This document shows, piece after piece, positions 31,261-61,788 of a stretch of 64,000 bases of DNA. Position numbers and translations under genes: made by a program. This stretch comes from Alphaproteobacteria bacterium (GTDB taxonomy: Bacteria > Pseudomonadota > Alphaproteobacteria > MPNO01 > VGEU01), in assembly GCA_016869145.1 (NCBI GenBank), contig VGEU01000001.1:49234-113233 (forward strand), given 5' to 3'. Under the pieces are notes generated by a model. The model worked only from the letters and a program-made list of their open reading frames with translations, had not been told where the DNA came from and ran no database searches. Numbering within the stretch: the stretch's first letter is position 1; each line of letters opens with the position of its first letter.

Positions 31261-31279
31261 CTCGCACTCGGGCTCAGAT

Positions 31280-36359: not shown

Positions 36360-36369
36360 CCTCGGTGCG

Positions 36370-39578: not shown

Positions 39579-39679
39579 CCGGCCGACCGGAGACCGCTTG
39601 ATGCCCCGAAGGCCTTCGCTATCATGCGCGCGGGCCGATGCCAGACAGCAAGGAACGGCTCGCGTCTGGGGAGGCGAGA

Positions 39680-40999: not shown

Positions 41000-41063
41000 T
41001 CGCGCCGGAGGGCGCAACCGCTGCGAGCCGACCGGACCATTGGCGCAGCTCAGATGGCGCGGC

Positions 41064-42491: not shown

Positions 42492-42598
42492 CGCCCTCTC
42501 CCCGGTTCGATCCGATCTCCATACACCGGCCGGCGCGGTTTGACACCTGTCGGCGCCGCTGCCTACCGTTGCCCGTATCGCCAGAGGGAGACCGCGCG

Positions 42599-43003
42599 AT
42601 GGAACGCCAGCACATCAATCCGCCCGCGCTCTTCAAGCATCCGAGCTATACCCGCGTGGTCACCGTCCAGGGACCGAGCAAGCTCGTCTTCATCGCCGGC
42701 CAGACACCGTCCGACGAGACCTACCGTCCAATCGGCAAGGGCGATCTCAAGCGTCAGTACGAGCGCGTCATGGAGGCACTCGATCTCCAACTCCGGGCCG
42801 CCGGCGCGGGCTGGGACGACGTCGTCTTCCGCCGCATCTTCGTCCTCGACATGGACGCCTTCATCAAGGTCCAGACCGATCCGTCGACGACCTATCCGTG
42901 GCACCCCGACCGGCCGCCGCCCTCGACGCTGGTCGGCGTGACGAGGCTGTCGCACCCGGACTTCATGATCGAGATCGACCTGATGGCCGTCGTCGCAGCC
43001 TGA
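42599..43003 (+). CDS. RidA/YjgF-family protein (second copy)
   Basis: From MERQHINPPALFKHPSYTRVVTV... The alternative start at 42569 cannot be excluded. Confidence 0.7.
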   Translation: MERQHINPPALFKHPSYTRVVTVQGPSKLVFIAGQTPSDETYRPIGKGDLKRQYERVMEALDLQLRAAGAGWDDVVFRRIFVLDMDAFIKVQTDPSTTYPWHPDRPPPSTLVGVTRLSHPDFMIEIDLMAVVAA

Positions 43004-43006
43004 GCC

Positions 43007-43465
43007 CTATTCCGCGATCCGGGCGAGGAGGCGGACGAGCGTCTTCCGCTCCGCCGGGTCGAGGGGGCCGAGCGTCCGTTCGCTGATCGCCCGCGCGCCC
43101 TCGATCGCCGCCGTCATGAGCGCGTGGCCCGCCTCGGTCAGCGACAGGATGAGCCGCCGCCGGTCGTCGGGGTCGGGCCGGCGCGCGATGAGGCCGCGGG
43201 CGGCGAGACGCTGGATCACGCCCTGCATGGTGGCGGCGTCCATCGCGGTGAGCCGGCCCAGCTGGTTCTGCGAGGTTTCACCGACGTCGCGGAGCTTGAC
43301 CAGCGCCGCGAACTGGAGCGGCGTCAGCTGCGCGGCGCCGATGTTCTCGAGGAAGATCGCCGCGTGGCGCTGATGGGCGCGGCGGAGCAGATGCCCCACC
43401 TGCGCCTCGAGCCGGTATCCGGCCTCGGCCACGGCCTTGCCGGTCGGTCGTCCCGCCCCGTCCAT
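43007..43465 (-). CDS. MarR family transcriptional regulator
   Basis: 152 aa with a winged-helix region LTPLQFAALVKL...SQNQLGRLTAMDAATMQGVIQRLAARGLIAR. Confidence 0.85.
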   Translation of the reverse strand: MDGAGRPTGKAVAEAGYRLEAQVGHLLRRAHQRHAAIFLENIGAAQLTPLQFAALVKLRDVGETSQNQLGRLTAMDAATMQGVIQRLAARGLIARRPDPDDRRRLILSLTEAGHALMTAAIEGARAISERTLGPLDPAERKTLVRLLARIAE

Positions 43466-43523
43466 CGCGCCGCCAATCGTTCGTACACGAACGATGTCGG
43501 AGCCGGACCCGGCCTGTCAAGGA

Positions 43524-44747
43524 TCAGACGATGCTTTTGGACCGGAGCGCCGCGATCTCGGCTGGCGAGAGGCCCGCGAGACCGCGCAGCACCTCCTCGG
43601 TGTGCTGGCCGAGGGTCGGGGATGCGCGCTCATAGGCGATCGGCGTGCCGGAGAGCTTGATCGGGTTGGCCACCCCCGGCACCGAGCCGGCGGTCGGGTG
43701 CGGCAACTCGATCCGCAGCCCGCGCGCGGCGACCTGGGGATCGGCGAAGACCTGGGCGAGATCGTTGATCGGGCCGCACGGCACGCCTGCCTTGTCGAGG
43801 AGATCGATCCAGACCTGGCGCGGCCGCGTCCGCATGAAGTCGGTGATGATGGCGACGAGGGCGTCGCGATTGGCAACGCGCGAGACATTGTCCTTGAAGC
43901 GCGGATCGGCCGGGACCTCGGGACGGCCGGCGATCTCGCAGAAGCGGCGGAACTGGCCCTCGTTACCGATCGCGATGATGAGATAGTGATCCGCGGTCGG
44001 GAACGCCTGGTAGGGCACGATGTTGGGATGGGCGTTTCCCATCCGCACCGGTGCGACGCCGGTGACGAGGTAGTTGAGCGCCTGGTTCGCCATGCACGCG
44101 GTCGTCACGTCGAACAGCGCCATATCGACGTGCTGGCCTTCGCCGGTCTCAGCACGGCTGCGGAGCGCGGCGAGCGCGGCCACGGCCGTGTAGAGCCCGG
44201 TCAGGATGTCTGAGAGCGCGACGCCGATCTTCTGCGGCCCGCCGCCCGGCTTGTCGTCGGCCTCGCCCGTCACGCTCATCATGCCGGCGAGGCCCTGGAT
44301 CATGAAGTCGTAGCCGGCGCGCTCGGCGTTGGGGCCGGTCTGCCCGAAGCCGGTGATCGAGCAGTAGATGAGGCCGCGGTTCAGCTTGCGGAGGTCGTCA
44401 TAGCCGAGGCCGTAGCGGGCGAGACCGCCGACCTTGTAGTTCTCGATCAGGATGTCGGACGTCGCGGCGAGACGACGGATGACGTCCTGGCCTTCGGGTG
44501 TCGCGATGTCGAGCGTGACCGAGCGCTTGCCGCGGTTCGTCGACTGGAAATAGGCCGCCTCGGTCGTCGGCCGTCCGTCCGGCCCCTTGAGGAAAGGCGG
44601 GCCCCACGCGCGGGTGTCGTCGCCGGCGCCGGGGCGCTCGATCTTGATCACGTCGGCGCCGAGATCGGCCAACAGCTGACCGCACCACGGGCCTGCGAGA
44701 ACGCGGCTCAGATCGAGCACGCGAATGCCGACGAGGGGACCGCTCAT
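43524..44747 (-). CDS. CoA-transferase family III (CaiB/BaiF) protein, a candidate glutarate or dicarboxylate CoA-transferase
   Basis: Start at [37 protein letters not shown], a typical family III N-terminus, with the conserved Asp region (GYDFMIQ). Confidence 0.85.
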   Translation of the reverse strand: MSGPLVGIRVLDLSRVLAGPWCGQLLADLGADVIKIERPGAGDDTRAWGPPFLKGPDGRPTTEAAYFQSTNRGKRSVTLDIATPEGQDVIRRLAATSDILIENYKVGGLARYGLGYDDLRKLNRGLIYCSITGFGQTGPNAERAGYDFMIQGLAGMMSVTGEADDKPGGGPQKIGVALSDILTGLYTAVAALAALRSRAETGEGQHVDMALFDVTTACMANQALNYLVTGVAPVRMGNAHPNIVPYQAFPTADHYLIIAIGNEGQFRRFCEIAGRPEVPADPRFKDNVSRVANRDALVAIITDFMRTRPRQVWIDLLDKAGVPCGPINDLAQVFADPQVAARGLRIELPHPTAGSVPGVANPIKLSGTPIAYERASPTLGQHTEEVLRGLAGLSPAEIAALRSKSIV

Positions 44748-45961
44748 CAGCCGGTGAACGCCTGGATGCCGGTCTGTGCGCGGCCGAGGATGAGCGCGTG
44801 GATGTCGTGCGTGCCCTCGTAGGTGTTGATGGTCTCGAGATTCATCATGTGGCGGATGACGTGGTACTCGTCGACGATGCCGTTGCCGCCGTGCATGTCG
44901 CGGGCCAAGCGCGCGATGTCGAGCGCCTTGCCGGTCGAATTGCGCTTGACGAGCGAGATCGCCTCGGGCGCGCATTTGCCCTCGTCCATCAGCCGTCCGA
45001 GACGGAGACACGCGTGCAGCCCGAGCGTGATCTCGGTCTGCATGTCGGCGAGCTTCTTCTGGATGAGCTGGTTGGCCGCGAGCGGGCGACCGAACTGGCT
45101 GCGGTCGAGCGTGTACTGGCGCGCGGCGTGCCAGCAGAACTCGGCCGCGCCGAGAGCGCCCCAGCAGATGCCGTAGCGGGCGTTGTTGAGGCAGCCGAAC
45201 GGTCCGCCGAGCCCGCGCGCTTCGGGCAGCATGTTCTCCGCAGGCACGAACACGTCATCGAGCGCGATCGTGCCGGTCTGCGAGGCGCGGAGCGAGAACT
45301 TGCCGTCGATCTTGACGGTCGAGAGCCCTTTCATGCCGCGCTCGAGGATGAAACCGCGGATCGTGCCCTCGTCGTCCTTGGCCCAGATCACGAACACGTC
45401 GGCGAAGGGCGCATTCGAGATCCAGGTCTTCGATCCCTTGAGCACAAAGCCGCCGTCGACCTTGCGGGCACGGGTCTTCATGCCACCGGGATCGGAGCCA
45501 TGGTCCGGCTCGGTGAGGCCGAAGCATCCGGCGAGCTCGCCGGTCGCGAGACGCGGTAGGTATTTCACCCGATGCGCCTCGGTGCCATAGGTGTAGATCG
45601 GCCACATCACGAGCGAGGACTGGACCGAGAGCGTCGAGCGGTAGGCACCGTCCACCCGCTCGATCTCGCGCGCGATCAGCCCGTAGGCGACATAGCTCGC
45701 GCCGGCACAGCCATAGCCGTCGAGCGTCGAGCCGAGGAAGCCCATCTCGCCCATCTGGTTGAGGAGCGCGCGATCGAAGGTCTCGTGGCGGTTGGCCTGG
45801 ACGATGCCGGGCATCAGCTTCTCGGCCGCGAACTCGCGCGCGGCATCGCGGATCAGCTTCTCGTCCTCGCCGAGGAGATCGTCGAAGAGGAGCGGATCCT
45901 CCCACTGGAAATTCGCCCACTTCTTGACCTTGGGGCCGGCCGTCGCGGCGTCTAGTGCCAT
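44747..45961 (-). CDS. gcdH: Glutaryl-CoA dehydrogenase (acyl-CoA dehydrogenase family)
   Basis: Start at MALDAATAG; 404 aa. It has the typical GcdH N-terminus ([17 protein letters not shown]) and the C-terminal [14 protein letters not shown] motif. Confidence 0.85.
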
Positions 45962-46001
45962 CGCGTGCTCCTTTGGTGCGCGTGGTGCGCGGCGGATCCG
46001 G

Positions 46002-47060
46002 TCAGCCGAACTTCTTCTTGGCCGCATCGAGGAAGCTGAGGTCGACCATGGTCTCGTAGGTCTGCGTCTTGACCTTGGTCGCCTCGCTGAACCAGACCTT
46101 GCCGCCATTCTCGAACTGAGCCCGCGTGATCACGCCGTTGTAGTCGTAGATCGGCTTGAGATACGCGATCTCGCGCATCGCCACCTCGGGCTTAAAGTTG
46201 CCCATGAACCGGCCCTCGACGGTCTTGTAGAGCTGCTCGGGCGTGCTGTTCTTGATCAACTGGAGGGCGCGATAGACGGCGTTGACGATGCCTTGGGTCA
46301 GCGCGGGCTTGGCCTTGATCTGCTCCTCGAGCGCGAACAGGCACTGGCCCGCGAAGGCGGAGCCGAAGAACTTGTTCCACAGCGCATCGTCGGTGGCGTT
46401 GAACGCGGCCTCGCCCAGCTTCTCGTCGGCGATGGCGAAGAAGATCAGGGTGTTCGCCATGCAGGCGTCGACCTTGCCGCTCTTGAAGGCCCCGATCATC
46501 GGCGCGCCGTCGCCGGTCGAGACGAAGTTGACGTTGTCGAGGAGACCGGCCTTCAGAAACATGTGGGAGCCATAGAGCCAGCTCTGCGCGCCGACGCGCG
46601 TGACGGCGATCTGCGGCTTGGTGCCGTCGGGCTTCTTCAGATTGCCGAGCGCCTCGACGGTGCGGATACCCTTCTCCCACAACTCGTTCCGAACCATCAG
46701 GGTCATCGTGGCGCGGGTGTCGAGGCCCATCATGATCTTGGCCGACTTGCCGGCGCCGGTGAGATAGAGCGGATGGATCACGTCGCCCTGGGCATACGGC
46801 ATCTGCCCGGCCGCGACCATCTGGCGGGTGTTGGTGCCGGCGGCGCCGGTGACGACGCGGCCGTTGATGCCCTCGTCCTTGAAGTAGCCGGCGGCGGAAG
46901 CGACCATGAACTGGAGGCTGTTCGAGGTCTCGACCGGGATGCCGAGCAGCATCTCCTCCGCCTGCGCCCGGGCCGCACCGGCCCAGGTGAACGAGTAAAG
47001 CTTGGTCGCGGCCACGGCCCCGGTGCCGGCCAACATCGTCCGGCGATTGATCCCACTCAT
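46002..47060 (-). CDS. ABC-transporter-type periplasmic substrate-binding protein (NMT1/SsuA/TauA-like) with a Tat signal
   Basis: Start at [32 protein letters not shown] (twin-arginine motif). No ABC permease or ATPase genes are adjacent. Confidence 0.75.
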
Positions 47061-47279
47061 CGTCGCGCTCTCCCTTGGTCGATGCGAGCCGCGTCGGTAT
47101 GGCGGCGGCCCTGGCAGCCAGTCCAACTCATGTTCTCGAAGGCCGGACTATAACGTCTCATCGGCCTCGGGCAACGCCAAACGGCCGGCGATCGGCCGCG
47201 CCGAGCCGATCAAGTTGACTCGCTCAAGCGGCCCCTGCGATGGTGGCGACGCCGCCAACCGACAAGCTTGGAGTTCGCC

Positions 47280-48686
47280 ATGCCGCATACGCTCCGGTCG
47301 TTCCTCGACAACATCCATAACCGGATTCTCAACATCCACGATCCGGTGCGCCCGGAAACGCAGATCGGCATCCTGTGCTCGGAGAGCCGGAGCCCGCTGA
47401 TGTTCCACAATCTCGTCGGCTATCCCGGCTTCAAGCTGACCGACATCTTGATCAAGGACCGGCGCGGCCAGGCCGCCGCTCTTGGCCTCGACAACATCAA
47501 GGAGGTCTGCCCGTTCCTCGCCAAGCAGATGTCGGCCGGCCCCGGACGCTCCACCATCGTCAAAGACGGTCCGGTGAAGGAGGTCAAGCTGATCGGCAAG
47601 AACGCCGATATCCGTAAGCTTCCCATCCCGCAGCACAGCCACGGCGATGCCGGGCGCTATCTCGGCTCCGGCATCACGATCACCAAGGACCCCGAGACCG
47701 GCATCCGGAACGAGTCCATTCTCCGGATGCAGCTCACCGACGATCCGCACAAATGCCCGTTCTGGATGGCGGCACGACACAACTATAGCCACTATCTGAA
47801 ATACGTCGCGCGCGGGGAATCGATGCCGATGGCGTTCGCGATCGGCCTCCACCCGGTCTACGAGATCATTGCCAACTGGTCGGGTCGGCACGAGGACTTC
47901 GACGAGCTCGAATATGCGGCCGGCGTCCTCGGCGAGACGGTCGAGCTCGTGAAATGCGAGACCATCGACCTCGAGGTTCCGGCGCATGCCGAGATCGTCA
48001 TCGAAGGCCTCGTCCATCCGACCGAGCGCATGCCCGAGGGTCCGTTCGGCGAGTTCACCACCCTCGGCACCGGCGCCGAGGGACCGGCCCCGGTGTTCAC
48101 CGTGACCGCGATCACCCACCGCAAAGACCCGATCTTCCGCCACATGCAGGCGACGTGGTTCACCGACCACCAGCCGTTGATCACGCTTCCCATGGAGGCC
48201 GCCTATTACAACCGGCTGCGCGACACCCACGGCAACACCAAGGTCCTCGACGTGTTCGTGCCGCCCTGGGCGTCGCAGTTCATGATGGTGGTCCAGGTCG
48301 AGGCGAAATGGGACGGCCAGGTCACCGATATGCTCATGTCGGCGCTGTCGGGCCCCAACCTCCACGTCAAGGTCGCGATCGCCGTCGACGAGGACGTCGA
48401 TCTCTACAACGCCGAGGACGTCCTGTGGGCGATCGCCGCCCGCTGCAACCCGCAGACCGATGTCTGGGTGCATCCGAACTCGCGGCTCCACCCGCTCGAC
48501 GTCTCGATCCCGCAGATCGGCGACGAGTACACGGTGATGCGCGTCGGCGGCAAGCTCGCGATCGATGCGACCCGTCCGCCGACCTGGCGCAAGAAGGAGC
48601 GTGACAGTCTCGGCCGCGTCGATCCGATGGGCAAGCACGACCCGGCGATACAGAAGATCCTCGAGATGGTGCGCCTGCCGCGCTGA
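47280..48686 (+). CDS. UbiD-family (prFMN-dependent) decarboxylase, type B paralog
   Basis: Start at MPHTLRSF (RBS TTGGAG); 468 aa, with GRYLGSG, EGPFGEFTT and the UbiD fold. It is about 35% identical to the 55853-57295 gene. Confidence 0.85.
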   Translation: MPHTLRSFLDNIHNRILNIHDPVRPETQIGILCSESRSPLMFHNLVGYPGFKLTDILIKDRRGQAAALGLDNIKEVCPFLAKQMSAGPGRSTIVKDGPVKEVKLIGKNADIRKLPIPQHSHGDAGRYLGSGITITKDPETGIRNESILRMQLTDDPHKCPFWMAARHNYSHYLKYVARGESMPMAFAIGLHPVYEIIANWSGRHEDFDELEYAAGVLGETVELVKCETIDLEVPAHAEIVIEGLVHPTERMPEGPFGEFTTLGTGAEGPAPVFTVTAITHRKDPIFRHMQATWFTDHQPLITLPMEAAYYNRLRDTHGNTKVLDVFVPPWASQFMMVVQVEAKWDGQVTDMLMSALSGPNLHVKVAIAVDEDVDLYNAEDVLWAIAARCNPQTDVWVHPNSRLHPLDVSIPQIGDEYTVMRVGGKLAIDATRPPTWRKKERDSLGRVDPMGKHDPAIQKILEMVRLPR

Positions 48687-48739: not shown

Positions 48740-49957
48740 ATGACCTCGGCCGTCGCCCACGCCGACCATCGGGTCGAGAACAAGACGATCGGGTTCATCT
48801 CGATCGGGCATGCGATCAGCCATTTCTACATGCTGGTGCTGCCGCCGCTGTTCCCGGTCCTCAAGACCGAGTTCGACGTGAGCTGGGCGTGGCTCGGCGG
48901 CATCCTCACGCTCTCGGGCGTCGCGATGGGCGTGGCCCAGGTTCCGCTCGGGTTCCTGGTCGACAAGATCGGCGCGCGGCCGGTGCTGTTCTGGGGCTTC
49001 GGCATCATGGCCGGCGCGACGATGCTGTCGGGCTTCGCCGACACTTTCGTGCTCCTCCTCGTCCTCACCGTGATCGCCGGGCTCGGCAACTCGGTGTTCC
49101 ATCCGGCGGACTACGCGATCCTGTCGGCACGGATCCGTGGGCCCCGTCTCGGCCGCGCGTTCTCGGTTCATCTGTTCGCGTCCTATATCGGCTGGATGAT
49201 CGCGCCGGCGGTCATGATCGCCCTCAACGAGATCGTCGGCTGGCGCAACGCGCTGATCGTGACCGGCGCCGCCGGTCTCGTCTTCCTCGCCGTCATGATC
49301 TGGCAGCGCGACTGCGTCGACGACCGCAAGAACGTCGTCGCGCGCGGCAAGGACGCACCGGCGCCGATGACGCCGTTCGAGATGGTGCGCAACCCGCCCA
49401 TCCTTCTGTTCTTCCTGTTCTTCCTTCTGCTCGCACTCGGCGGCACCGGGCTCCACAGCTTCATCGTCACCTCGCTGGTCGAGCTCTACGGCGCCGATCT
49501 CCGCGTCGCCAACATCGCGCTCGCCGGTTTCTTCGCGGCCGGCGGCATCGGCATCCTCATCGGCGGCTACATCGCCGACAAGACCGACCGCCACGAGGAC
49601 GCGACCGCGATCGCCTATGTGATCGGCGCGGTCCTGATCGCCGCCGTCGCGTTTCCCGTGGTCGGCATCTGGGGTGCGGTCGCCCTCCTCTTCCTCGGCG
49701 GCCTCTTCAACGCCTGCGTCAGCCCCTCGCGCGACATCATGGTGCGGAACATCTCGCCACCGGGCCAGGTCGGGGCCGTGTTCGGGCTCGTCACCACCGG
49801 CTTCTCGGTCGGTGGCGCGATCGCCCCGGCGCTGTTCGGGTGGTTCAACGACATCGGCCATCCGCAATGGGTGTTCTGGTTCTCGGCGTTGACCTCGCTG
49901 CTCTCCATCCTCGCCGTCTATGCCGCCCAGATCGCGCACCGGCGCTCGCTCCGCTGA
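48740..49957 (+). CDS. MFS transporter
   Basis: 405 aa with 12 predicted TM helices and MFS motifs (GFLVDKIGARP). Confidence 0.85.
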   Translation: MTSAVAHADHRVENKTIGFISIGHAISHFYMLVLPPLFPVLKTEFDVSWAWLGGILTLSGVAMGVAQVPLGFLVDKIGARPVLFWGFGIMAGATMLSGFADTFVLLLVLTVIAGLGNSVFHPADYAILSARIRGPRLGRAFSVHLFASYIGWMIAPAVMIALNEIVGWRNALIVTGAAGLVFLAVMIWQRDCVDDRKNVVARGKDAPAPMTPFEMVRNPPILLFFLFFLLLALGGTGLHSFIVTSLVELYGADLRVANIALAGFFAAGGIGILIGGYIADKTDRHEDATAIAYVIGAVLIAAVAFPVVGIWGAVALLFLGGLFNACVSPSRDIMVRNISPPGQVGAVFGLVTTGFSVGGAIAPALFGWFNDIGHPQWVFWFSALTSLLSILAVYAAQIAHRRSLR

Positions 49958-50010
49958 TCGCGCCACCACTTGGCCGCTGACAAGCCCGGCCGAATCCCGC
50001 ACACTTCCGC

Positions 50011-50052
50011 GTCGTCCTGTGCCCGTCGTCCTGTGCCCGTCGTCCTGTGCCC
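50011..50052. repeat. Perfect tandem repeat 3 x 14 bp (GTCGTCCTGTGCCC) immediately upstream of the RBS of the TctC-like gene
   Basis: gtcgtcctgtgccc gtcgtcctgtgccc gtcgtcctgtgccc gtcatcc, read directly. The RBS GAGGAG is at about 50063. Confidence 0.85.
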
Positions 50053-50075
50053 GTCATCCGGTCGAGGAGTCCGTC

Positions 50076-51113
50076 ATGCGCCGCGCCTCTGCGTCGTTCA
50101 TCGCCGTCACCGCCTTGCTGAGCGGCGCCCTCGCGGCCGCCCCGCGTGCAGAGGCCGACGAGATCGCCGACTTCTTCAAGGGCAAGATCATCCGGATCAT
50201 CGTCGGCTTCGGCGAAGGCGGCGGCTACGATCTCTACGCCCGCTTCGCCTCCGAGCACATGGGCCGGTTCATCCCCGGCAACCCGACCATCGTCACCCAG
50301 AACATGCCGGGTGCAGGCAGCAAGCGCGCGGCGAAATTCGTCTACTCGGTCGCGCCCAAGGACGGCACCGTGTGGGGCATGGTGGCGCAATCGGTGCCGC
50401 ACGAGGCCGCGCTCGGCGACGCCGAGTTCGACTACGACGTCAACAAGTTCCAGTGGCTCGGCCGCATCACCTCGAACGTCGACGTCGGTGTCACTTGGCA
50501 CACCACCAATGTCCGGACCATCGCCGACGCCCAGGCGCGCCAGGTCGTCGTCGGCGGCACCGGCGCCGCCTCACCCTCGGTCCAGGTGCCCAAGGCGCTC
50601 AACCACATCCTCGGCACCCAGTTCAAGATCGTCACCGGCTACAAGGGCTCGGCCGATATCTCGCTCGCCATGGAGCGCGGCGAGGTCGACATGGTGGCCT
50701 CCATCGGCTGGCCGTCGATCAAGTCGACGCGGCCGCAATGGGTGCGTGACAAGCAGGTGAACTTCATCTATCAGACCGCGGTCGAGAAGCACCCCGAGCT
50801 TCCCAACATTCCGGCGCTCGGCGAGCTCGGCCGCAATGCCGACGAGACCGCGGTGCTCCACTTCATTGCCTCCTCTGCCGATATCGGCCGCGCGCTGTTC
50901 GCGCCCCCCGACACGCATCCGGGCCGGCTCGCGGCGCTGCGCAAGGCCTTCGACGCGATGGTCGCCGATCCCGTCGTCAAGGCCGACGCCGAGCGGCGGA
51001 ATGTCGACTTCGACACCGCGACCTGGCAGAAGCTGCAACAGCTCACCACCCAGATCGTAACGACGAAGCCCGAGGTGCTGGCCAAGGTGAAGGTCGCGCT
51101 TGACCAGAAATAG
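50076..51113 (+). CDS. Periplasmic solute-binding protein, divergent TctC/Bug-like family (paralog 3 of 3)
   Basis: Start at MRRASASFIAVTALLSGALAAAPRAEA (signal peptide). FFKGKIIRIIVGF, IPGNPTIVTQNMPGAGS and KIVTGYKGSADISLAMERGEVDM are shared with paralogs 1 and 2. Confidence 0.85.
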   Translation: MRRASASFIAVTALLSGALAAAPRAEADEIADFFKGKIIRIIVGFGEGGGYDLYARFASEHMGRFIPGNPTIVTQNMPGAGSKRAAKFVYSVAPKDGTVWGMVAQSVPHEAALGDAEFDYDVNKFQWLGRITSNVDVGVTWHTTNVRTIADAQARQVVVGGTGAASPSVQVPKALNHILGTQFKIVTGYKGSADISLAMERGEVDMVASIGWPSIKSTRPQWVRDKQVNFIYQTAVEKHPELPNIPALGELGRNADETAVLHFIASSADIGRALFAPPDTHPGRLAALRKAFDAMVADPVVKADAERRNVDFDTATWQKLQQLTTQIVTTKPEVLAKVKVALDQK

Positions 51114-51159: not shown

Positions 51160-52053
51160 ATGTCCGCGACATTGTCCGACCGACCGAACGACGCCGATCT
51201 GAAGTCCCTCATGCCGCCACGCGCCGCACTGCACGCCCAGATCGATGCGTGGCTCAGGGAGGACATCGGCCGGCTCGACATCACGACCGAGTACATGATC
51301 CCGCGCGATGCGCGGGCCGAGTTCGTGATGAACACCCGCCACGACATCGTCGTCTGCGGCATCGACATCGCGGCGGAGGTGTTCCGCTTTCACGTGCCGG
51401 AGGCCGCGATCCAGATCCTGATGACGGATGGCACACGCGCGACCAAGGGCCAGGCGCTCTTGAAGGTGAGCGGGCCGGCACGCGGGCTTCTCACCGCCGA
51501 GCGGACCGCGCTCAACGTCCTCCAGTTCCTGACCGGGATCGCGACCCTGACGGCGCGCTATGCCGATCTCGTCAAGGGCACGCCGGCGACCCTCATCGAC
51601 ACCCGGAAGACGCTCCCCGGCTATCGCGCGCTCTCCAAATACGCGACCGTCGTCGGCGGCGCGCGGAACCATCGCATCCGCCTCGACGACGGCATCATCA
51701 TCAAGGACAACCACATCGCGGTGTGCGGCTCGATCACCGCCGCCGTCGCCCGCGCCCGCGCGCTGACGCCCTCGCTCACCAAGATCGAAGTCGAGTGCGA
51801 CACGCTCGCGCAGGTCGCCGAGGCCGCCGCCGCCAAGGCCGACGTCATCATGCTCGACAACATGGACGCCGCCATGATGCGCGAGGCGGTGAAGATCGTC
51901 GCCGGCCGCGCCGAGCTCGAGGCCTCGGGCGGCATCACGCTCGAGACCATCCGCGACAAGGCGATGACGGGCGTCGACTACATCTCGGTCGGACGCATGA
52001 CCCAGTCGGCGCCGGCCGCCGACATCGGGCTCGATGTGCATCTGATGGTGTGA
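51160..52053 (+). CDS. nadC: Nicotinate-nucleotide pyrophosphorylase [carboxylating] (quinolinate phosphoribosyltransferase)-family protein
   Basis: Start at MSATLSDRP (RBS AAAGGAG); 297 aa. The NadC signature LREDIGRLDITTEYMI is present, plus the KDNH catalytic region (IIIKDNHIAVCG) and GGITLETI. It is not flanked by nadA or nadB. Confidence 0.85.
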   Translation: MSATLSDRPNDADLKSLMPPRAALHAQIDAWLREDIGRLDITTEYMIPRDARAEFVMNTRHDIVVCGIDIAAEVFRFHVPEAAIQILMTDGTRATKGQALLKVSGPARGLLTAERTALNVLQFLTGIATLTARYADLVKGTPATLIDTRKTLPGYRALSKYATVVGGARNHRIRLDDGIIIKDNHIAVCGSITAAVARARALTPSLTKIEVECDTLAQVAEAAAAKADVIMLDNMDAAMMREAVKIVAGRAELEASGGITLETIRDKAMTGVDYISVGRMTQSAPAADIGLDVHLMV

Positions 52054-52058
52054 GCCCC

Positions 52059-52625
52059 ATGGCGTCATCGCGTCTGCCGCGCCGGCGCGCGCTCTGCCTG
52101 TTCTGCGGCGCCTCGGAGAAGTTCCCGCCGAGCTTCCGTGCCGCCGCCGAGGCGCTCGGCGCTGGCTCTGTCCGGAACGGCTGGCGGCTCGTCTATGGCG
52201 GCAGCCGGTCCGGGCTGATGGGCGCCGCGGCGCGCGCGGCGATGGCGGCGGGCGGCGAGGTGATCGGCGTCCGCCCGCGCGGCCTCATCGCGGCGGAAAT
52301 GCCGGCCGCCGAGATCACCGAGCAGATCCACGTCGACACATTCCATGAGCGCAAGGCCGTGATGGCGGCGCTCGCCGACCACTTCGTCGCGCTGCCGGGC
52401 GGGCTCGGCACGCTCGATGAGGTGAGCGAGATGATGAACCTCGCCGTCACCGGCATCCAGGCCCAGCGAACCTGGTTCCTCGATATCGATTCCTATTGGC
52501 GCCCGCTGATGGCGCTGTTCGCCCACTTCGATTCCTACGGCGCGTCGCGGCCGGGCTTCGAGGCCACCTATGCCGCCGTCGAGAGCGTCGATGCGCTGTT
52601 CGCCGCGCTCGACCCGAAACGCTGA
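52059..52625 (+). CDS. LOG-family nucleotide 5'-monophosphate phosphoribohydrolase (TIGR00730 Rossmann-fold protein)
   Basis: Start at MASSRLPRRRALCLFCGAS, 5 nt after the nadC stop. VYGGSRSGLMGAAA...PGGLGTLDE matches LOG-family motifs (GGGxxGLMG; PGGxGTxEE). Confidence 0.8.
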   Translation: MASSRLPRRRALCLFCGASEKFPPSFRAAAEALGAGSVRNGWRLVYGGSRSGLMGAAARAAMAAGGEVIGVRPRGLIAAEMPAAEITEQIHVDTFHERKAVMAALADHFVALPGGLGTLDEVSEMMNLAVTGIQAQRTWFLDIDSYWRPLMALFAHFDSYGASRPGFEATYAAVESVDALFAALDPKR

Positions 52626-52643: not shown

Positions 52644-53621
52644 ATGGTCCGACGTCGGTTGTTGCTCGCCGTGCTCGCGCTCGCAGGCGGTCTTGCCGTC
52701 GCCGGCGCGGCGAACGCCCAGGCCTATCCGACCAAGCCGGTCCGCATCCTCAACGGCTTCGCCGCCGGCGGCGCGCAGGACCTCCTCGGGCGGATCATCG
52801 CCGATCATCTGTCGAAGGCGCTCGGCCAGCCCTTCATCGTCGAGGCCAAGCCCGGCGCCGGCGGGATCGTCGCCGGCCAGATCCTGATCGCCTCGCCCGC
52901 GGACGGCCACACGCTCTATGTCGTGAGCCCCGGCATCATCGCGACCGCCCGGGCGATGAACGACAACATGACCTATGACCCGGCGACCGCCTTCGCGCCG
53001 GTCACCGTCCTCGCCGAAGCGCCGATGATCATCCAGATCGCCGCCGACATTGCGATGACGACCGTCAAGGACTTCATCGCCTATGGCAAGGCCAACCCGA
53101 CCAGGCTCAATCACGGTTCGCCCGGCGTCGGCACGGTGCCGCATCTCGCCGCCGAGCTGTTCCGCGCGCGCCTGGGGTTCGAGAGCGTCCATATTCCGTT
53201 CCGCGGCCAGGGGCCCTTCACCCAGGCCATCCTCCAGCGCGAGGTGCAATGGGGGTTCGGCGCGCCGATCTCGGCCCTCGCCGCGCTCCGCGGCAATAAT
53301 GGGCGGCTGATCGCCGTCACCAGCCGGACCCGCTGGTCGGCCGCGCCCGACGTGCCGACGCTCGCCGAGCTCGGCTTCGAGGACAGCGTGTGGTCGGTGT
53401 GGAACGGCCTTGTCGCGCCGGCCGGAACCCCGACCGCGATCATCGACCGCCTCGCCGGCGAGATCGCCCTCGCGATGAAGGACCCGGCCACCATCACGCG
53501 CATCCAGAACTCGGGCTACGAGCCGTGGACGCTGAGCCCGGCCGAGACGGCGCGGTTCTTCGAGGCCGAGCGGGCGCGCTGGTCGGCGGTCGCGAAGGCC
53601 AACAATATCAAGGCGGAATAG
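52644..53621 (+). CDS. Tripartite tricarboxylate transporter substrate-binding protein (canonical TctC/Bug family)
   Basis: 325 aa with a signal peptide; AYPTKPVRILNGFAAGGAQDLLGRIIADHLSKALGQPFIVEAKPGAGG is the typical Bug/TctC signature. Confidence 0.9.
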   Translation: MVRRRLLLAVLALAGGLAVAGAANAQAYPTKPVRILNGFAAGGAQDLLGRIIADHLSKALGQPFIVEAKPGAGGIVAGQILIASPADGHTLYVVSPGIIATARAMNDNMTYDPATAFAPVTVLAEAPMIIQIAADIAMTTVKDFIAYGKANPTRLNHGSPGVGTVPHLAAELFRARLGFESVHIPFRGQGPFTQAILQREVQWGFGAPISALAALRGNNGRLIAVTSRTRWSAAPDVPTLAELGFEDSVWSVWNGLVAPAGTPTAIIDRLAGEIALAMKDPATITRIQNSGYEPWTLSPAETARFFEAERARWSAVAKANNIKAE

Positions 53622-53692: not shown

Positions 53693-55204
53693 ATGGCGAA
53701 GTCCCTGCGGGACATAGTCCCCGGCGGCAAGTCTGCGAGCAACCTTCAAGCTGTCCTGCCGTACAAGGACTTGCGGCAATGGCTTGAGGAAGCGAAGAAG
53801 CTCGGCGAGGTCGTCATCGCCAAGGGCCTCGGTGTCGAGGAGGAGATCGGCGCCGCCGCCGAGATGGTGATGCAGCGCGACGATGCGCCTTGCGTCGTGT
53901 TCGACGAGATCCCGGGCTACCCCAAGGGCCATCGCGTGCTCGTCAATTTCTTCGGCGGCAAGCGCAAGAACATGACGCTCGGCTTCCCAACCGAGCTTTC
54001 GAAGATCGACCTCTCGGAGGCCTACTACTCCAGCCAGATCAAGGAATTGCCGTCGATCCCTCACGTTATCGTCGAGAGCGGTCCGGTGACCGAGAACATC
54101 AAGGAGGGCGATGCGATCGACGTCACGGCCTTCCCGGCGCCGATGTGGCATCCGGCCGATGGCGGCCGCTATCTTGGCACCGGTTCATATGACGTCACCA
54201 TCGATCCCGATTCGCGGTGGATGAACCTCGGCACCTACCGCGTCATGGTGATGGATAAGAAGACGGTCGGCTTCTACATCTCGCCGGGCAAGCACGGCCG
54301 GGTCCATCGAGACAAGTGGATGGCGCGCGGCGAGCCGATGCCGGCGGTGATCGTCTGCGGCGGTGACCCGATGACCTTCCTCGCCGCCTGCACCGAGATG
54401 CCGCAGGGTCAGTGCGAGTACGACATCGTCGGCGGCATGCGCGGCGAGGCGCTCAAGTGCATCAAGGGCAAATACACCGGCATTCCCTTCCCGGCCGACG
54501 CCGAGATCGTGATCGAGGGCTTCGTCGACCCCAGGGAGCGCCGCCCCGAAGGGCCGTTCGGCGAGTGGACCGGCTATTACGGCTCCGACATGCGCGACGA
54601 GCCGGTGATGCATGTGAAGGCGGTCTATCACCGCAACAACCCGATCATCCTCGGCTGCCCGCCGCAGCGCCCGCCCGACGAGATGTGCCGCTATCGCGCC
54701 ATCACGCGCTCGGCGATGCTCCGCTCCAATGTCGAGAAGGCGGGTGTGCCCGATGTCGCCGCCGCCTGGGCGCATGAGGTCGGCAACGCGCGGATGCTCC
54801 TCGGCATCGCGATCAGGCAGCGTTATCCCGGCCACGCCAAGCAGGCCGGCCATGTCGCCGCGATGTGTCATGTCGGCGCCTATGCCGGCAAATATGTCGT
54901 GGTGACCGACGAGGACATCGACGTGTCGAACCTCGAGGAGCTCACCTGGGCGATGCTCACCCGCTCCGATCCCGCGACCTCGATCGACATCATCCATGGC
55001 GCCTGGTCGACGCCGCTCGATCCGCGCATTCCGCCCGACGAAAAGAAGAAGGGTAACATGACCAACAGCCGGGCGATCATCGACGCCTGCCGGCCCTTCC
55101 ATTGGCGGAACGAGTTCCCCAAGGTCAACGCCCCCTCGCCCGAGGAGGCGCGCCGGGCGCGCGAGCGCTTCGGCTATCTCCTCGAGGGCAAGGACAAGCC
55201 CTAG
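53693..55204 (+). CDS. UbiD-family (prFMN-dependent) decarboxylase, type A paralog 1
   Basis: 503 aa, with GGRYLGTGSY, EGPFGEWTGYYG and the C-terminal HAKQAGH...TDEDIDV. It is about 70% identical to the 57376-58884 gene, with long stretches identical at the DNA level in inverted orientation. Confidence 0.9.
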   Translation: MAKSLRDIVPGGKSASNLQAVLPYKDLRQWLEEAKKLGEVVIAKGLGVEEEIGAAAEMVMQRDDAPCVVFDEIPGYPKGHRVLVNFFGGKRKNMTLGFPTELSKIDLSEAYYSSQIKELPSIPHVIVESGPVTENIKEGDAIDVTAFPAPMWHPADGGRYLGTGSYDVTIDPDSRWMNLGTYRVMVMDKKTVGFYISPGKHGRVHRDKWMARGEPMPAVIVCGGDPMTFLAACTEMPQGQCEYDIVGGMRGEALKCIKGKYTGIPFPADAEIVIEGFVDPRERRPEGPFGEWTGYYGSDMRDEPVMHVKAVYHRNNPIILGCPPQRPPDEMCRYRAITRSAMLRSNVEKAGVPDVAAAWAHEVGNARMLLGIAIRQRYPGHAKQAGHVAAMCHVGAYAGKYVVVTDEDIDVSNLEELTWAMLTRSDPATSIDIIHGAWSTPLDPRIPPDEKKKGNMTNSRAIIDACRPFHWRNEFPKVNAPSPEEARRARERFGYLLEGKDKP

Positions 55205-55852: not shown

Positions 55853-57295
55853 TCACCCGAACACGTCGGGGAACTTGGCACGCACCGCTCGGGCGAGCTC
55901 GGGCGAGGTCTGGGCGACCTTTGGGAAGGTCTCGAGCCGCTCATAGGGGATGCAGGCGTCGATGACGGCGCGGCTGTTGTAGAGCTCCTTCCCCGTCACC
56001 ATCGGGTCGAGGCGCGAGGACCAGGTCTTGGTCAGGATCTGGATGTCCTGTTTCGGGTCCGAGCGCGTCCCCATCGCCCAGATGACGTCGTGGATGTCGG
56101 AGGGGTCGATATCTTCGTCGACGACGACGATGTAGCGCCCGACATAGCCGACCGGGTTGACCTGCGAGGCGACCATGCCGACCTGGGTCGAGTGGCCGAA
56201 ATAGCGCTGGCGGATCGCGACGACGACGAAGGTGCGCCCCGAGCCCGCCTGGTGCACCCACACGCCCTTGACGTCGGGAATGCCCGCGCCCTCGAGCGAG
56301 TCCATCAACGCCGCCGAGCGGATGAAGCAACGCTCGAACAGATGCGAGTGCGGCGGCTTCTGGCTCGCGGCGCAGGTGAGGATCGGGTCGTTCCGCCAAT
56401 AGGCCGCTTTGATCCGGATCAGCGGCTCCATCTTGGCGTCGCCCGCGTAATAGCCGGTCCATTCGCCGAACGGACCTTCCAGCACCTGCTCGTCCGGAAC
56501 GCACTCGCCCTCCAGCACGATCTCGGACTGCGCCGGGATCGGCAGACCCGTGATCGGGCCGGGCACGCAATCGATCGGCGCGCCGGCGATGCCACCCGCC
56601 CAATCGAGCTCGGCAACCGTGTCGGCGAGCGTGTAGCGCGCGGCGATGTAGCTCACGGGATCGATGCCGACCACGATCGCCATCGGGCACGGCTTGCCGC
56701 TCTTGAAGTATTTGTCGCGATGGATGCGGCCCTGCTTGCCGTTCGAGATGTAGGACGCGCAGCTATTGCCCGAGATCACCTGCACGCGATAGGTGCCCAT
56801 GTTGATGCGCCCGGTATCCGGATCGCGGGTGATGACGGCGCACGCGGTCCCGATATAGCGCCCGCCGTCGAGCTCGTGGTGGATCGGCACCGGAAACTTG
56901 AGGAGATCGACCGCCGCGCCTTCGGCGATGTTCTCCATCACCGGGCCGCGCTCGACCATGCGTGGCGGGATCGGCTTGTTGGTCTTGATCTGCTTGCGGA
57001 ACTGGTCGAGGAGCGCCATGCGGTCGCGGCTCGCGACGCTCGCATCGAGACCGAAGCCGAGCGCGAGCCGGAAGGGCGAGCCGAGCATGCCGTAGATGCA
57101 GCGGAAGCCCTTGGGATAGCCCGGAATGTCGTCGAAGAGTAGGAGCGGCGAGCGATCGACCTTCTCGCGGTAGAGCACCTCGGTGACCGCACCCATCTCC
57201 TTGTCCCAATGGGCCCGGTTCACCGTCTTGAGCTCGCCGCCCTTCTCGACCGCGGCGAGAAAGGCGCGGAGATCGGTTTGCACCGCGTTGCTCAT
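55853..57295 (-). CDS. UbiD-family (prFMN-dependent) decarboxylase, type B paralog
   Basis: 480 aa, with GGRYIGTACAV, EGPFGEWTGYYAG and the UbiD fold. Confidence 0.9.
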   Translation of the reverse strand: MSNAVQTDLRAFLAAVEKGGELKTVNRAHWDKEMGAVTEVLYREKVDRSPLLLFDDIPGYPKGFRCIYGMLGSPFRLALGFGLDASVASRDRMALLDQFRKQIKTNKPIPPRMVERGPVMENIAEGAAVDLLKFPVPIHHELDGGRYIGTACAVITRDPDTGRINMGTYRVQVISGNSCASYISNGKQGRIHRDKYFKSGKPCPMAIVVGIDPVSYIAARYTLADTVAELDWAGGIAGAPIDCVPGPITGLPIPAQSEIVLEGECVPDEQVLEGPFGEWTGYYAGDAKMEPLIRIKAAYWRNDPILTCAASQKPPHSHLFERCFIRSAALMDSLEGAGIPDVKGVWVHQAGSGRTFVVVAIRQRYFGHSTQVGMVASQVNPVGYVGRYIVVVDEDIDPSDIHDVIWAMGTRSDPKQDIQILTKTWSSRLDPMVTGKELYNSRAVIDACIPYERLETFPKVAQTSPELARAVRAKFPDVFG

Positions 57296-57375: not shown

Positions 57376-58884
57376 TCACTTGGTGAGCCAGCCCCATTTC
57401 TCGCGCGCTTCCTTGGCGAGCTCGGGCGACGGCGCGTTGACCTTCGGGAACTCGTTCCGCCAATGGAAGGGGCGACAGGCGTCGATCACGGCGCGGCTGT
57501 TGGTGAAATTGCCCTTCGCCTTGTCCTCCGGCGAGATGCGCGGATCGAGCGGCGTCGACCAGGCGCCATGGATGATGTCGATCGAGGTCGCGGGATCGGA
57601 GCGGGTGAGCATCGCCCAGGTCAGCTCCTCGAGGTTCGACACGTCGATGTCGTCGTCGGTGACGACGATGTATTTCCCGGCATAGGCGCCGACGTGACAC
57701 ATCGCGGCGATGTGCCCAGCCTGCTTGGCGTGACCGGGATAACGCTGCTTGATCGACACCGCGACCAGCATGCGCGCGGTGCCGACCTCGTGCAGCCAGG
57801 CGGCGGTGACATCGGGAACGCCGGACTTGGCGATGTTCTCCTTGAGGAGCGCCGAGCGGGTGACCGCGCGATAGCGCGCGAGCTCGTCGGGCGGGCGCTG
57901 CGGCGGGCAGCCGAGAATGATCGGGTTGTTGCGGTAATAGATCGCCTTGATGTCGAGCACTGGCTCCTCGCGGTGCTTGGAGCCGTAATAGCCCGTCCAC
58001 TCGCCGAACGGCCCCTCTTCGCGCATGTTGCCCGGGCGCACGAAGCCCTCGATCACGATCTCGGCGTTGGCCGGGAACGGCAGCCCGGTATGCTTGCCGA
58101 GAACGACGTCGATCGGCTTGCCGCGGAAGCCGCCGACCACGTCGTACTCGCAGACATTCGGCGGTATCTCGCTGCAGCCCATGAGGAACGTCATCGGATC
58201 GCCGCCGCACACGATCACCGCCGGCATCGCCTCGTTGCGCTGCATGTACTTGTCGCGGTGGATGCGGCCGTGCTTGCCGGGCGAGATGTAGAACCCGACC
58301 GATTTCTTGTCGTGGATCATCACCCGGTAGGTGCCGAGATTGAGCCAGCCGGTGTCGGGGTCCTTGGTGACGTTGTAGCTGCCGGTGCCGATATAGCGGC
58401 CGCCGTCGTCGTCGTGCCAGAGCGGCGTCGGGAACGCGTTCACGTCGACCGCATCGCCCTCCATGATGTTCTCGGTCACCGGGCCCGCTGCGACCACGCG
58501 CGGCGGAATCAGCCGGAGATCCTCCATGTAGTTGTGCCGGAACGCATCCGTGAGCTCGATCTTGTTGAGCTCGGACGGGAAGCCGAGCGTCATGTTCATG
58601 CGCCGGCCGGAGAAGAAGTTGCACAGAACGCGCGAGCCCTTGATCGTGCCGGGCACGTCCTCGAACACGACGCAGGGCGCCTTCTCATCGTGCAGGATCA
58701 CCTCGGCCGCCATGCCGATGTCGCGCTGCCAGGACGCGCCCTTGACGAACTTCACCTCGCCGAGCTTCTCGGCCTCGGTCAGCCAGCCGCGAAGATCGTC
58801 ATAGGGAATGCGGAGCTCGTTGGCCCGATCGCTGCTGCCGGTCGCGGCGAGCTTGCCGATCGCGTTGCCCATGTCGTCGACCAT
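57376..58884 (-). CDS. UbiD-family (prFMN-dependent) decarboxylase, type A paralog 2 (inverted duplicate of the 53693-55204 gene)
   Basis: 502 aa. Its C-terminal half is nearly identical to that of the 53693-55204 gene (PAVIVCGGDPMTFL ... GHAKQAGH ... RPFHWRNEFPKVNAPSPE). Confidence 0.9.
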   Translation of the reverse strand: MVDDMGNAIGKLAATGSSDRANELRIPYDDLRGWLTEAEKLGEVKFVKGASWQRDIGMAAEVILHDEKAPCVVFEDVPGTIKGSRVLCNFFSGRRMNMTLGFPSELNKIELTDAFRHNYMEDLRLIPPRVVAAGPVTENIMEGDAVDVNAFPTPLWHDDDGGRYIGTGSYNVTKDPDTGWLNLGTYRVMIHDKKSVGFYISPGKHGRIHRDKYMQRNEAMPAVIVCGGDPMTFLMGCSEIPPNVCEYDVVGGFRGKPIDVVLGKHTGLPFPANAEIVIEGFVRPGNMREEGPFGEWTGYYGSKHREEPVLDIKAIYYRNNPIILGCPPQRPPDELARYRAVTRSALLKENIAKSGVPDVTAAWLHEVGTARMLVAVSIKQRYPGHAKQAGHIAAMCHVGAYAGKYIVVTDDDIDVSNLEELTWAMLTRSDPATSIDIIHGAWSTPLDPRISPEDKAKGNFTNSRAVIDACRPFHWRNEFPKVNAPSPELAKEAREKWGWLTK

Positions 58885-61711: not shown

Positions 61712-61788
61712 GCCCCGCCCTTCGTCCCGCCGGTGGTCTGATGCCACGGCGCATTGTACGGTGGCCGCCGCGTCGGGAGGAAGAACGC

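Follow-up and report, generated by a model that had tools for sequence, protein, structure and literature searches.

We analysed a 64-kb stretch of contig VGEU01000001.1 from an alphaproteobacterial metagenome-assembled genome (MAG; the whole stretch is henceforth referred to as the window), in which a nadC gene, encoding a decarboxylating quinolinate phosphoribosyltransferase (QAPRTase), lies directly before a gene for a LOG-family nucleoside 5'-monophosphate phosphoribohydrolase. The reading that we favour, with a probability of roughly 0.55, is that this pair constitutes a two-enzyme funnel of catabolic purpose, which would convert imported quinolinate (pyridine-2,3-dicarboxylate) to free nicotinate, and we regard it as the best-supported explanation of the data. 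The original prediction, made from the sequence of the window, had proposed that NadC makes nicotinate mononucleotide (NaMN) and that LOG then frees the base and ribose-5-phosphate, as a phosphoribosyl-assisted decarboxylation serving catabolism. Comparison across genomes supports this proposal: LOG is displaced by an unrelated partner in related loci, the module is contiguous with a nicotinate (nic) cluster in Cupriavidus pauculus, uptake genes accompany it and the expected residues are conserved. We found no description of a quinolinate route through NadC and LOG, or through NadC and a phosphorylase, in the searchable literature, which omits most subscription journals, and the nadC–LOG catabolic route appears to be unreported.

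As we envisage it, quinolinate would be taken up by the TctC proteins and the major facilitator superfamily (MFS) permease of the operon, and NadC would turn quinolinate, together with phosphoribosyl pyrophosphate (PRPP), into NaMN, CO2 and pyrophosphate (PPi), a chemistry that is established for the family and for which the active site is intact. LOG would then hydrolyse NaMN to nicotinate and ribose-5-phosphate, and the latter would be recycled to PRPP by the housekeeping PRPP synthetase (Prs). The phosphoribosyl group would serve as a recyclable handle, and the net outcome would be an ATP-driven decarboxylation at a cost close to that of activation by a CoA ligase. In sister clusters with a phosphorylase and PhnN as partners, NaMN and inorganic phosphate (Pi) would yield nicotinate and ribose-1,5-bisphosphate, and the latter would react with ATP to give PRPP, a variant that closes the loop explicitly and would save one phosphoanhydride bond. 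The nicotinate would be degraded next, in C. pauculus by the adjoining nic cluster and in the source MAG presumably, if speculatively, by the products of the surrounding molybdenum (Mo)-hydroxylase, UbiD, aldehyde dehydrogenase, CoA-transferase and glutaryl-CoA-dehydrogenase-like genes.

The window is bacterial DNA with a GC content of ~67%, in which real reading frames were picked by GC at the third codon position. Both nadC and LOG are open reading frames (ORFs) of high third-position GC, and an AGGAG ribosome-binding site stands before the nadC start codon (ATG 51160). The coordinates and families predicted for the two genes were borne out by ORF, Pfam and NCBIfam analysis (Table 1), with a gap of 5 nt (52054-58) between the nadC stop and the LOG ATG (52059). 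The window NadC scored 306 bits against the NCBIfam nadC equivalog TIGR00078 (cutoff 198), contained the QRPTase_N (PF02749, 75 bits) and QRPTase_C (PF01729, 194 bits) domains and had the NadC of T. thermophilus as its best match in the PDB (1x1o, 246 bits). The residues that bind quinolinate and PRPP are kept (Arg115, Thr148-Arg149-Lys150, His171-Arg172, Lys182, Glu212, Asp233 and Ser256-Gly-Gly), with roles that we take to be those of Arg105', Thr138-Arg139-Lys140, His161-Arg162, Lys172, Glu201, Asp222 and Ser248-Gly-Gly (M. tuberculosis numbering) in the M. tuberculosis and Salmonella structures. The full set was present in 18 of the 19 members of the window NadC clade, window protein included, and positions specific to the clade include Asn58, Arg169, Cys213 and Gln282. 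Since every substrate-binding residue is kept, quinolinate or a very close analogue is the expected substrate, and judged by family score and binding residues the window NadC is a canonical QAPRTase. A separate case is the NadC of locus L057 (10001-10822; 43% identical), which lacks equivalents of Thr138, Arg139, Arg162, Glu201, Ser248 and Gly249, is still found beside phosphorylase and UbiD genes, and may be a degenerate or neofunctionalised copy.

The typical biosynthetic setting of nadC, with nadA and nadB as neighbours or in a housekeeping locus, was not found within the 64-kb window, where we looked for nadA, nadB, a second nadC and a second LOG gene and found none. As had been predicted, nadC is set among transporter and decarboxylase genes: it forms part of a same-strand array of seven genes with short gaps (ubiD–MFS–tctC–nadC–LOG–tctC–ubiD), which thus holds an MFS, two TctC-like and two UbiD genes, and a terminator scan of this array gave no convincing internal terminator.

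The NadC comparison set consisted of 70 sequences with their flanks; a scan of genome contigs with NadC was biased by peptide pattern and yielded 59 loci, and it is no exhaustive census. Relatives of the window LOG at 45-87% identity were again preceded by nadC. The TctC–nadC–LOG–TctC order of the window was also found in L007 and L010, and nadC lay 5' of LOG in L006 (where the NadC C-terminus is visible within the first 66 nt), the P0006 contigs, L001/L004/L005 and L076/L096, with the LOG start ranging, over five lineages, from a 4-nt overlap with the nadC stop to a 5-nt gap. In the LOG tree, the nadC-linked LOGs formed one clade (92% bootstrap when P0017 and P0025 were included), and nadC was upstream in 9 of the 10 clade LOGs with enough upstream sequence compared to none of 53 generic LOGs (Fisher p = 4e-10). 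All partner-linked NadCs likewise formed one clade (80% bootstrap), with housekeeping alphaproteobacterial NadCs as its sister (96% for clade plus sister). A NadC group at 57-60% identity lay in a zapE–nadC–mdh–sucC setting of housekeeping type, where three of the four members had nadB upstream, and distant NadCs were often found in nadA–nadB–nadC arrays.

A metagenome scan with the LOG-clade alignment, in which the matches listed were mostly generic LOGs, served as a background set only. We rejected chance adjacency and generic LOG synteny as explanations: among the matches listed, nadC was missing at 78 of 80 background LOG loci, and both loci that had it belong to the same NadC and LOG clades as the window. 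It was also missing beside the generic LOGs on Azospirillum replicons, which adjoin dnaB–alr.

The identity of the gene that follows nadC is the most direct indication of what the pair may do. This gene was either LOG or a PhnN plus AMP-phosphorylase-like unit in 16 of the 19 clade loci, compared to none of 51 loci outside the clade (p = 4e-13, or p = 2e-8 when collapsed to lineages). PhnN and the phosphorylase followed nadC in L012-L015, L057, L151/L152, L153, L154, L157, L162 and the P0130 contig, in the last as two separate genes; the same module was not found in the 64-kb window. On the marine TARA contigs L151/L152, whose NadC protein was read on 23 contigs, nadC is followed by a gene for a 570-amino acid PhnN–phosphorylase fusion. 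Residues 1-160 of the L151 fusion correspond to PhnN, the ribose-1,5-bisphosphokinase that forms PRPP (TIGR02322, 160 bits, cutoff 156), and the remainder belongs to the archaeal-type nucleoside monophosphate/'thymidine' phosphorylase family, of which AMP phosphorylase is a member (TIGR02645, 463 bits, cutoff 435), with a score of 400 bits against the AMP_phos equivalog that is below its cutoff of 535. Within NadC subclade A (100% bootstrap), the window, L007 and L010 have LOG, the P0130 contig has PhnN and phosphorylase, and L008/L009/L011 have neither. LOG and the AMP-phosphorylase family are unrelated proteins with a common chemistry, in that both break the N-glycosidic bond of a nucleoside 5'-monophosphate: LOG releases the base and ribose-5-phosphate, and the phosphorylase releases the base and ribose-1,5-bisphosphate, which PhnN turns into PRPP, the co-substrate of NadC. 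The exchange of one for the other after nadC is a textbook case of non-orthologous displacement. Because release of the base is the only activity that the partners share and the product of NadC is the only local mononucleotide, NaMN would be the nucleotide that is cleaved.

Many sphingomonad plasmids carry a 'thymidine phosphorylase family' gene that overlaps a Prs-like ribose-phosphate diphosphokinase gene and has no nadC nearby (two examples are given in Table 1). This Prs-paired phosphorylase looks distinct from the PhnN-linked form, and the nadC link is specific to the PhnN-associated phosphorylase.

The window LOG matched PF03641 (101 bits) and TIGR00730 (145 bits, cutoff 96), contained the motifs PGGLGTLDE and YGGSRSGLMG, and fell well short of the cytokinin-LOG equivalog NF058542 (95 bits, cutoff 300). 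Using the roles assigned to catalytic and adenine/N6-prenyl pocket residues in PMC4979012, we found that the catalytic Arg98/Lys99 and Glu121 (CgLOG Arg99/Lys100/Glu122) are kept, as is the phosphate-binding motif, and that the CgLOG prenyl-pocket positions Met96/His97/Lys100/Glu125/Trp129 are occupied by Phe/His/Lys/Glu/Leu. Across the nadC-linked clade, position Met96 is Leu or Phe in 17/17 sequences (generic LOGs: Met in 73/81), His97 is Ala or Phe in 15/17 (His in 75/81) and Trp129 is Leu, Met or Thr in 15/17 (Trp in 72/81). These pocket changes fit a different base specificity without identifying the base; together with the context of the gene, we infer NaMN to be the probable substrate of the window LOG. 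A reversal of charge was seen at residue 59 (~52233-52235), which is Arg in 16/17 nadC-linked LOGs compared to Asp in 65/81 generic LOGs, and this Arg might contact the carboxylate of the base. Further changes specific to the clade are Ser18→Ala, Gly49→Ser, Ile42→Trp and Ile138→Thr.

Cultured carriers of the module were found by tblastn of a plasmid collection. They are Variovorax sp. SRS16 (gene order MarR, nadC, fusion, TctC), Cupriavidus pauculus FDAARGOS_614, where the module lies on a conjugative plasmid (MarR, nadC, MarR, fusion, TctC, porin), Paraburkholderia sp. 22B1P (nadC, PhnN + phosphorylase) and Pacificitalea manganoxidans DY25 (TAXI-TRAP binding protein, TRAP permease, nadC, fusion). 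Modules of nadC and a partner were always accompanied by carboxylate uptake genes, be it TctC, TAXI-TRAP, MFS or porin. Directly adjoining the C. pauculus module are genes whose annotation or sequence match points to NicAB, NicC, NicD, NicE, NicF, NicX and NicT; the set comprises a Mo-hydroxylase with its 2Fe-2S subunit, an FAD monooxygenase, an Asp/Glu racemase and an α/β-hydrolase, and, further, a 2,5-dihydroxypyridine 5,6-dioxygenase, an N-carbamoylsarcosine-amidohydrolase-type protein, a TetR regulator and an MFS transporter. We take this set to be a complete aerobic nicotinate (nic) pathway as in Pseudomonas putida, and its contiguity with the module is what one would expect of a module that supplies nicotinate to catabolism. 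NadCs of the betaproteobacterial modules grouped with alphaproteobacterial sequences and not with the nadA-linked Oxalobacter NadC, the deep branching being without resolution, which is consistent with a horizontally transferred accessory copy. The window MarR regulator is 46% identical to the MarR adjoining nadC in C. pauculus (L156 25619-26089), and L151 and the P0130 contig likewise have a MarR gene in the matching place; MarR may travel with the module across proteobacterial classes.

A number of observations weigh against the quinolinate-to-nicotinate funnel. No recognisable nic pathway is present in the window: with the C. pauculus NicA/B/C/D/E/F/X proteins as queries, homologs of NicC/D/E/F/X were not found in the 64 kb. 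In L008, L009 and L011, which belong to the NadC clade, a UbiD gene directly follows nadC and there is no cleaving enzyme within 10 kb. The nadC–LOG pairs of L001/L004/L005 and L076/L096 lie among genes that look housekeeping (glycosyltransferases, gshB, RNase G, PTS) and not catabolic, and in these the pair might contain the only nadC, with LOG as a homeostatic valve. One clade LOG, L071 (LNFM01036993.1, 1-3915; LOG at the contig end), is the sole case in which an upstream stretch of at least 1.1 kb contains no nadC. With four UbiD decarboxylases nearby, a PRPP-dependent decarboxylation could look redundant. Characterised LOG enzymes act on purine or cytokinin nucleotides, and to our knowledge none takes NaMN. 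Finally, the trees are neighbour-joining trees on about 260 and 170 columns, many loci come from MAGs or metagenome fragments, and sampling was pattern-biased.

A nic-type nicotinate pathway in the window was rejected as a candidate, the only similarity to the C. pauculus Nic proteins being generic 2Fe-2S/Mo-cofactor similarity. The part of the original prediction in which the pair feeds a nicotinate hydroxylase/reductase module elsewhere in the window was not borne out: what the window contains is generic Mo-hydroxylases of the xanthine dehydrogenase (XDH) family and a CoA-transferase/acyl-CoA dehydrogenase/aldehyde dehydrogenase set.

Salvage of quinolinate for NAD in the manner of Bordetella nadC–bug69, in which LOG would be a relief valve or a pyridine-nucleotide-cycle nucleosidase for NaMN or NMN and carbon or nitrogen catabolism would play no part, shares its LOG chemistry with the funnel and differs from it in physiological purpose alone. 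Linkage of nadC to tctC and binding of quinolinate by Bug27 and Bug69 are documented (PMC11452294), the window TctC protein encoded 3' of LOG is homologous to Bug27, and nadA and nadB were not found in the window. Salvage is also the best alternative for the nadC–LOG(–TctC) genes of L076/L096 and L001/L004 in their housekeeping-like surroundings. However, a flux at vitamin level gives no reason for a partner that destroys NaMN or regenerates PRPP to be translationally coupled to nadC, the operon that holds the window pair also encodes two UbiD decarboxylases and an MFS permease, and the C. pauculus module is attached to a nic cluster. Nor is there a NadQ-type regulator, since all ORFs neighbouring nadC were assigned to other families and the nearest regulator is a MarR protein. 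For the window, we consider salvage unlikely.

Alternatively, the gene could be a compensatory copy of the OphE/PhtD type, where the island would degrade ortho-dicarboxylated aromatics (phthalate or pyridine dicarboxylates) that inhibit QAPRTase competitively, an extra, induced nadC would sustain NAD synthesis and LOG would clear aberrant mononucleotides that NadC forms from analogues of its substrate. An accessory nadC has precedent in phthalate degradation by Burkholderia cepacia DBO1 and Sphingobium, as far as the citing papers relate it, and plasmid pAS1 of Sphingobium yanoikuyae carries nadC inside a pht dioxygenase operon; in the window, aromatic-acid decarboxylases, Mo-hydroxylases and TctC relatives of terephthalate binders are plentiful. 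Yet the compensatory nadC of the pht cluster has no nucleotide-cleaving neighbour, clade-wide pairing with LOG or with PhnN and phosphorylase is not predicted, and a PRPP-regenerating partner is left without explanation. No Rieske phthalate dioxygenase was found among the window ORFs scanned against Pfam, and the context in C. pauculus is catabolism of nicotinate, not phthalate. We hold compensation to be quite unlikely.

The partners could also serve to supply NadC with ribose phosphate or PRPP from AMP, via LOG or via phosphorylase and PhnN. Characterised LOG (PMC4979012) and AMP phosphorylase enzymes act on AMP, the fusion has similarity to AMP_phos, and PhnN makes PRPP (PMC11452294), but ribose-5-phosphate is a central metabolite for which a dedicated LOG source makes little sense, even though LOG and PhnN/phosphorylase are interchangeable. 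Moreover, without cleavage of NaMN this product would pile up at any flux that justified extra PRPP, and the LOG clade has lost conserved adenine/prenyl pocket residues, so that a supply role seems improbable. Synteny inherited in one alphaproteobacterial lineage, with no functional link and LOG in an ordinary cytokinin or nucleotide role, is barely credible: LOG is a widespread housekeeping gene and a single ancestral juxtaposition could suffice for nadC-linked LOGs from one clade, but the adjacency is kept at near-zero spacing down to 45% LOG and 63% NadC identity, an unrelated enzyme of equivalent chemistry takes the LOG slot and the pocket residues are changed systematically.

Table 1. Coordinates of the features discussed (window positions, unless another locus is named).
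Feature	Coordinates	Strand	Details
nadC, quinolinate phosphoribosyltransferase (decarboxylating)	51160..52053	+	297 aa; TGA 52051-52053
LOG-family (TIGR00730) nucleoside 5'-monophosphate phosphoribohydrolase, proposed NaMN hydrolase	52059..52625	+	188 aa
UbiD_a47, UbiD-family decarboxylase, first array gene	47268..48686	+	PF01977/PF20696; TIGR00148 279 bits
MFS transporter, anion:cation symporter-like	48740..49957	+	PF07690 176 bits
Divergent TctC-like binding protein directly 5' of nadC	49920..51113	+	weak PF03401, 36 bits
TctC/Bug-family periplasmic solute-binding protein, candidate quinolinate binder	52644..53621	+	PF03401 208 bits
UbiD_b53, UbiD-family decarboxylase, last array gene	53693..55204	+	UbiD domains (Pfam)
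UbiD-family paralogs, two more	55853..57295 and 57376..58884	-	opposite strand to nadC array
MarR-family regulator, candidate cluster regulator	43007..43516	-	PF12802/PF01047
XDH-family molybdenum hydroxylase large subunits, four	1-2238, 13516-15954, 32764-36428, 59375-62194	-	no NCBIfam equivalog cutoff reached
Tandem Hydantoinase_B/oxoprolinase paralogs	15955-18141 and 18142-20310	-	~725 aa each
Prs-paired phosphorylase, Sphingobium sp. TKS pTK1	L160 6734-9102		
Prs-paired phosphorylase, N. aromaticivorans pNL2	L161 6731-9111		

The TctC gene that begins 18 nt past LOG encodes a protein whose PDB relatives include the terephthalate-binding TBP, BugE and the quinolinate-binding Bug27 (2qpq, 151 bits); its identity to the TctC encoded with nadC in the C. 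pauculus module is 35%, and its position 3' of LOG is kept in L006, L007, L010, L076 and L096. The divergent TctC-like gene on the other side of nadC has orthologs at 63-65% identity in the same position in L007 and L010. For the MFS transporter, whose position is kept in L007, L010 and L011, the best NCBIfam subfamily matches were galactonate/phosphoglycerate-type transporters. Six tandem TctC/Bug paralogs follow nadC–LOG in L010 (7055-13310), a Rhodospirillaceae MAG, and this array points to a whole set of binders for related carboxylates.

Four UbiD-family paralogs lie in the window within a span of 12 kb. The closest solved structure to UbiD_a47, which is syntenic in L011 and L151, is the 2,5-furandicarboxylate decarboxylase HmfF (6h6x/6h6v, 207 bits), and that to UbiD_b53 is the phenazine-1-carboxylate decarboxylase PhdA (7PDA, 351 bits), so that both of these solved relatives have heteroaromatic acids as substrates; it is the b53-type gene that directly follows nadC in L008, L009 and L011. 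Identification of UbiD_b53 as the ubiquinone UbiD, in a housekeeping nadC–ubiD pair, was rejected on its PRK10922 score (150, cutoff 788). A UbiX flavin prenyltransferase had no match among the window ORFs scanned.

Upstream of the array lie genes for MarR, a family III CoA-transferase, an acyl-CoA dehydrogenase (ACAD), an aldehyde dehydrogenase and 2-oxoacid:acceptor-oxidoreductase (OFOR)-like proteins, and several XDH-family Mo-hydroxylases. A supercluster at 39602-47126 contains a GltD-like oxidoreductase, MarR, the CoA-transferase, a glutaryl-CoA-dehydrogenase-like ACAD and a UbiD_a gene, and additionally holds aldehyde dehydrogenase and RidA genes. The GltD-like/MarR/CoA-transferase/ACAD/UbiD_a supercluster recurs with nadC in L151 (176-6257), L011 (3656-7629) and the P0130 contig, from uncultured and marine TARA Alphaproteobacteria. 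Speculatively, it may encode an undescribed route from the pyridine ring to glutaryl-CoA; likewise, the recurrence in L011, L151 and P0130 of Mo-hydroxylase, GltD-like, OFOR-like, aldehyde dehydrogenase, CoA-transferase and ACAD genes with 3-4 UbiDs suggests, again as speculation, a different route with a C5 dicarboxylate as its end product. For the window Mo-hydroxylases, the OFOR-like proteins and an amidohydrolase, no assignment specific to nicotinate came from NCBIfam. Joining these strands leads to a broader proposal that we regard as doubtful: the phosphoribosyl group would be a traceless handle and NadC the first enzyme of a degradative cycle, the LOG clade would be NaMN phosphoribohydrolases and the AMP-phosphorylase-like/PhnN fusion an NaMN phosphorylase and PRPP regenerator, and in the uncultured and marine Alphaproteobacteria with the conserved MarR–CoA-transferase–acyl-CoA-dehydrogenase–UbiD supercluster the nicotinate would enter an undescribed UbiD-dependent route to glutarate or glutaryl-CoA.

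One of the four window Mo-hydroxylases is fused to its own 2Fe-2S domain and adjoins an FAD subunit. At 29765-33118 (minus strand), genes for a member of the PF06684 'amino acid synthesis' family and for a conserved hypothetical protein of the PRK04334 type (374 bits) lie directly 3' of Mo-hydroxylase genes, and a 612-amino acid ORF without a family match overlaps the 3' end of the Mo-hydroxylase in this region. No Hydantoinase_A partner for the Hydantoinase_B pair was found among the window ORFs scanned. The presence of four Mo-hydroxylase large subunits points to an island that handles several N-heterocyclic substrates.

Quinolinate, a tryptophan metabolite with neurotoxic action, is also an intermediate in industry. 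If the funnel that we propose is real, it would be a second bacterial route of quinolinate degradation, mechanistically unrelated to hydroxylation by QuiA; it would give a bacterial LOG clade its first non-purine physiological substrate and would provide a function for bacterial AMP-phosphorylase-like/PhnN fusions. It would also mean that a 'nadC' annotation does not always denote NAD biosynthesis, with consequences for metabolic reconstruction and for the 'quinolinate degradation' modules on which microbiome studies draw. The carriers of the module are Alphaproteobacteria from soil, sludge and the sea (TARA) and plasmids of Betaproteobacteria, a spread that may indicate environmental relevance, and the module is directly testable in cultured strains.

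The window NadC shares family, domains, equivalog-level score and active-site residues with the NadC (EC 2.4.2.19) of de novo NAD biosynthesis and presumably catalyses the same reaction. It differs in lying in a transporter/decarboxylase operon instead of beside nadA/nadB or in a zapE–nadC–mdh locus, and in that its product is proposed to be destroyed and not made into NAD. With the cytokinin LOGs (CgLOG 5its, PaLOG 5zbj) and PpnN, the window LOG has in common the fold family, the PGGxGTxxE motif, the catalytic Arg/Glu and the type of reaction; unlike the cytokinin LOGs, it misses the NF058542 cutoff, its pocket is replaced across the clade, Asp is changed to Arg at residue 59 and the proposed substrate is a pyridinium mononucleotide. 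The alternative partner of the window NadC clade belongs to the families of the archaeal AMP phosphorylase/ribose-1,5-bisphosphate pathway and of PhnN, but is bacterial, is fused or adjacent to nadC and would act on NaMN.

Among known nadC modules, one close in make-up is nadQ–nadC–bug69 of Bordetella and Achromobacter, a quinolinate salvage module whose Bug protein belongs to a family shown to bind quinolinate (Brickman 2017; PMC11452294); adjacency of nadC and phnN has been read as PRPP supply in PMC11452294. There, as proposed for the window, nadC is linked to a TctC/Bug protein and exogenous quinolinate is the likely substrate, whereas the window has no NadQ, has a nucleotide-cleaving enzyme, decarboxylases and an MFS transporter in addition, and would serve catabolism. 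Burkholderia cepacia DBO1 has a second QAPRTase that phthalate induces, and Sphingobium has phtD (Chang & Zylstra 1999, as cited in PMC6051330 and PMC7419452). These cases resemble the window in that a nadC which looks supernumerary lies in an island of aromatic-acid catabolism with a regulator of the MarR type; in the pht clusters, however, Rieske dioxygenase genes surround nadC, neither LOG nor a phosphorylase lies beside it, and it takes no part in the chemistry of the pathway. The only quinolinate catabolic route that we found cited in the searchable literature is that of Alcaligenes faecalis JQ191, which is started by the four-component hydroxylase QuiA (Zhao et al. 2023, as cited in PMC11789743). 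There, too, quinolinate is a growth substrate, but, as the citing paper summarises the route, hydroxylation of the ring comes first and phosphoribosylation is not involved, in contrast to the route proposed here.

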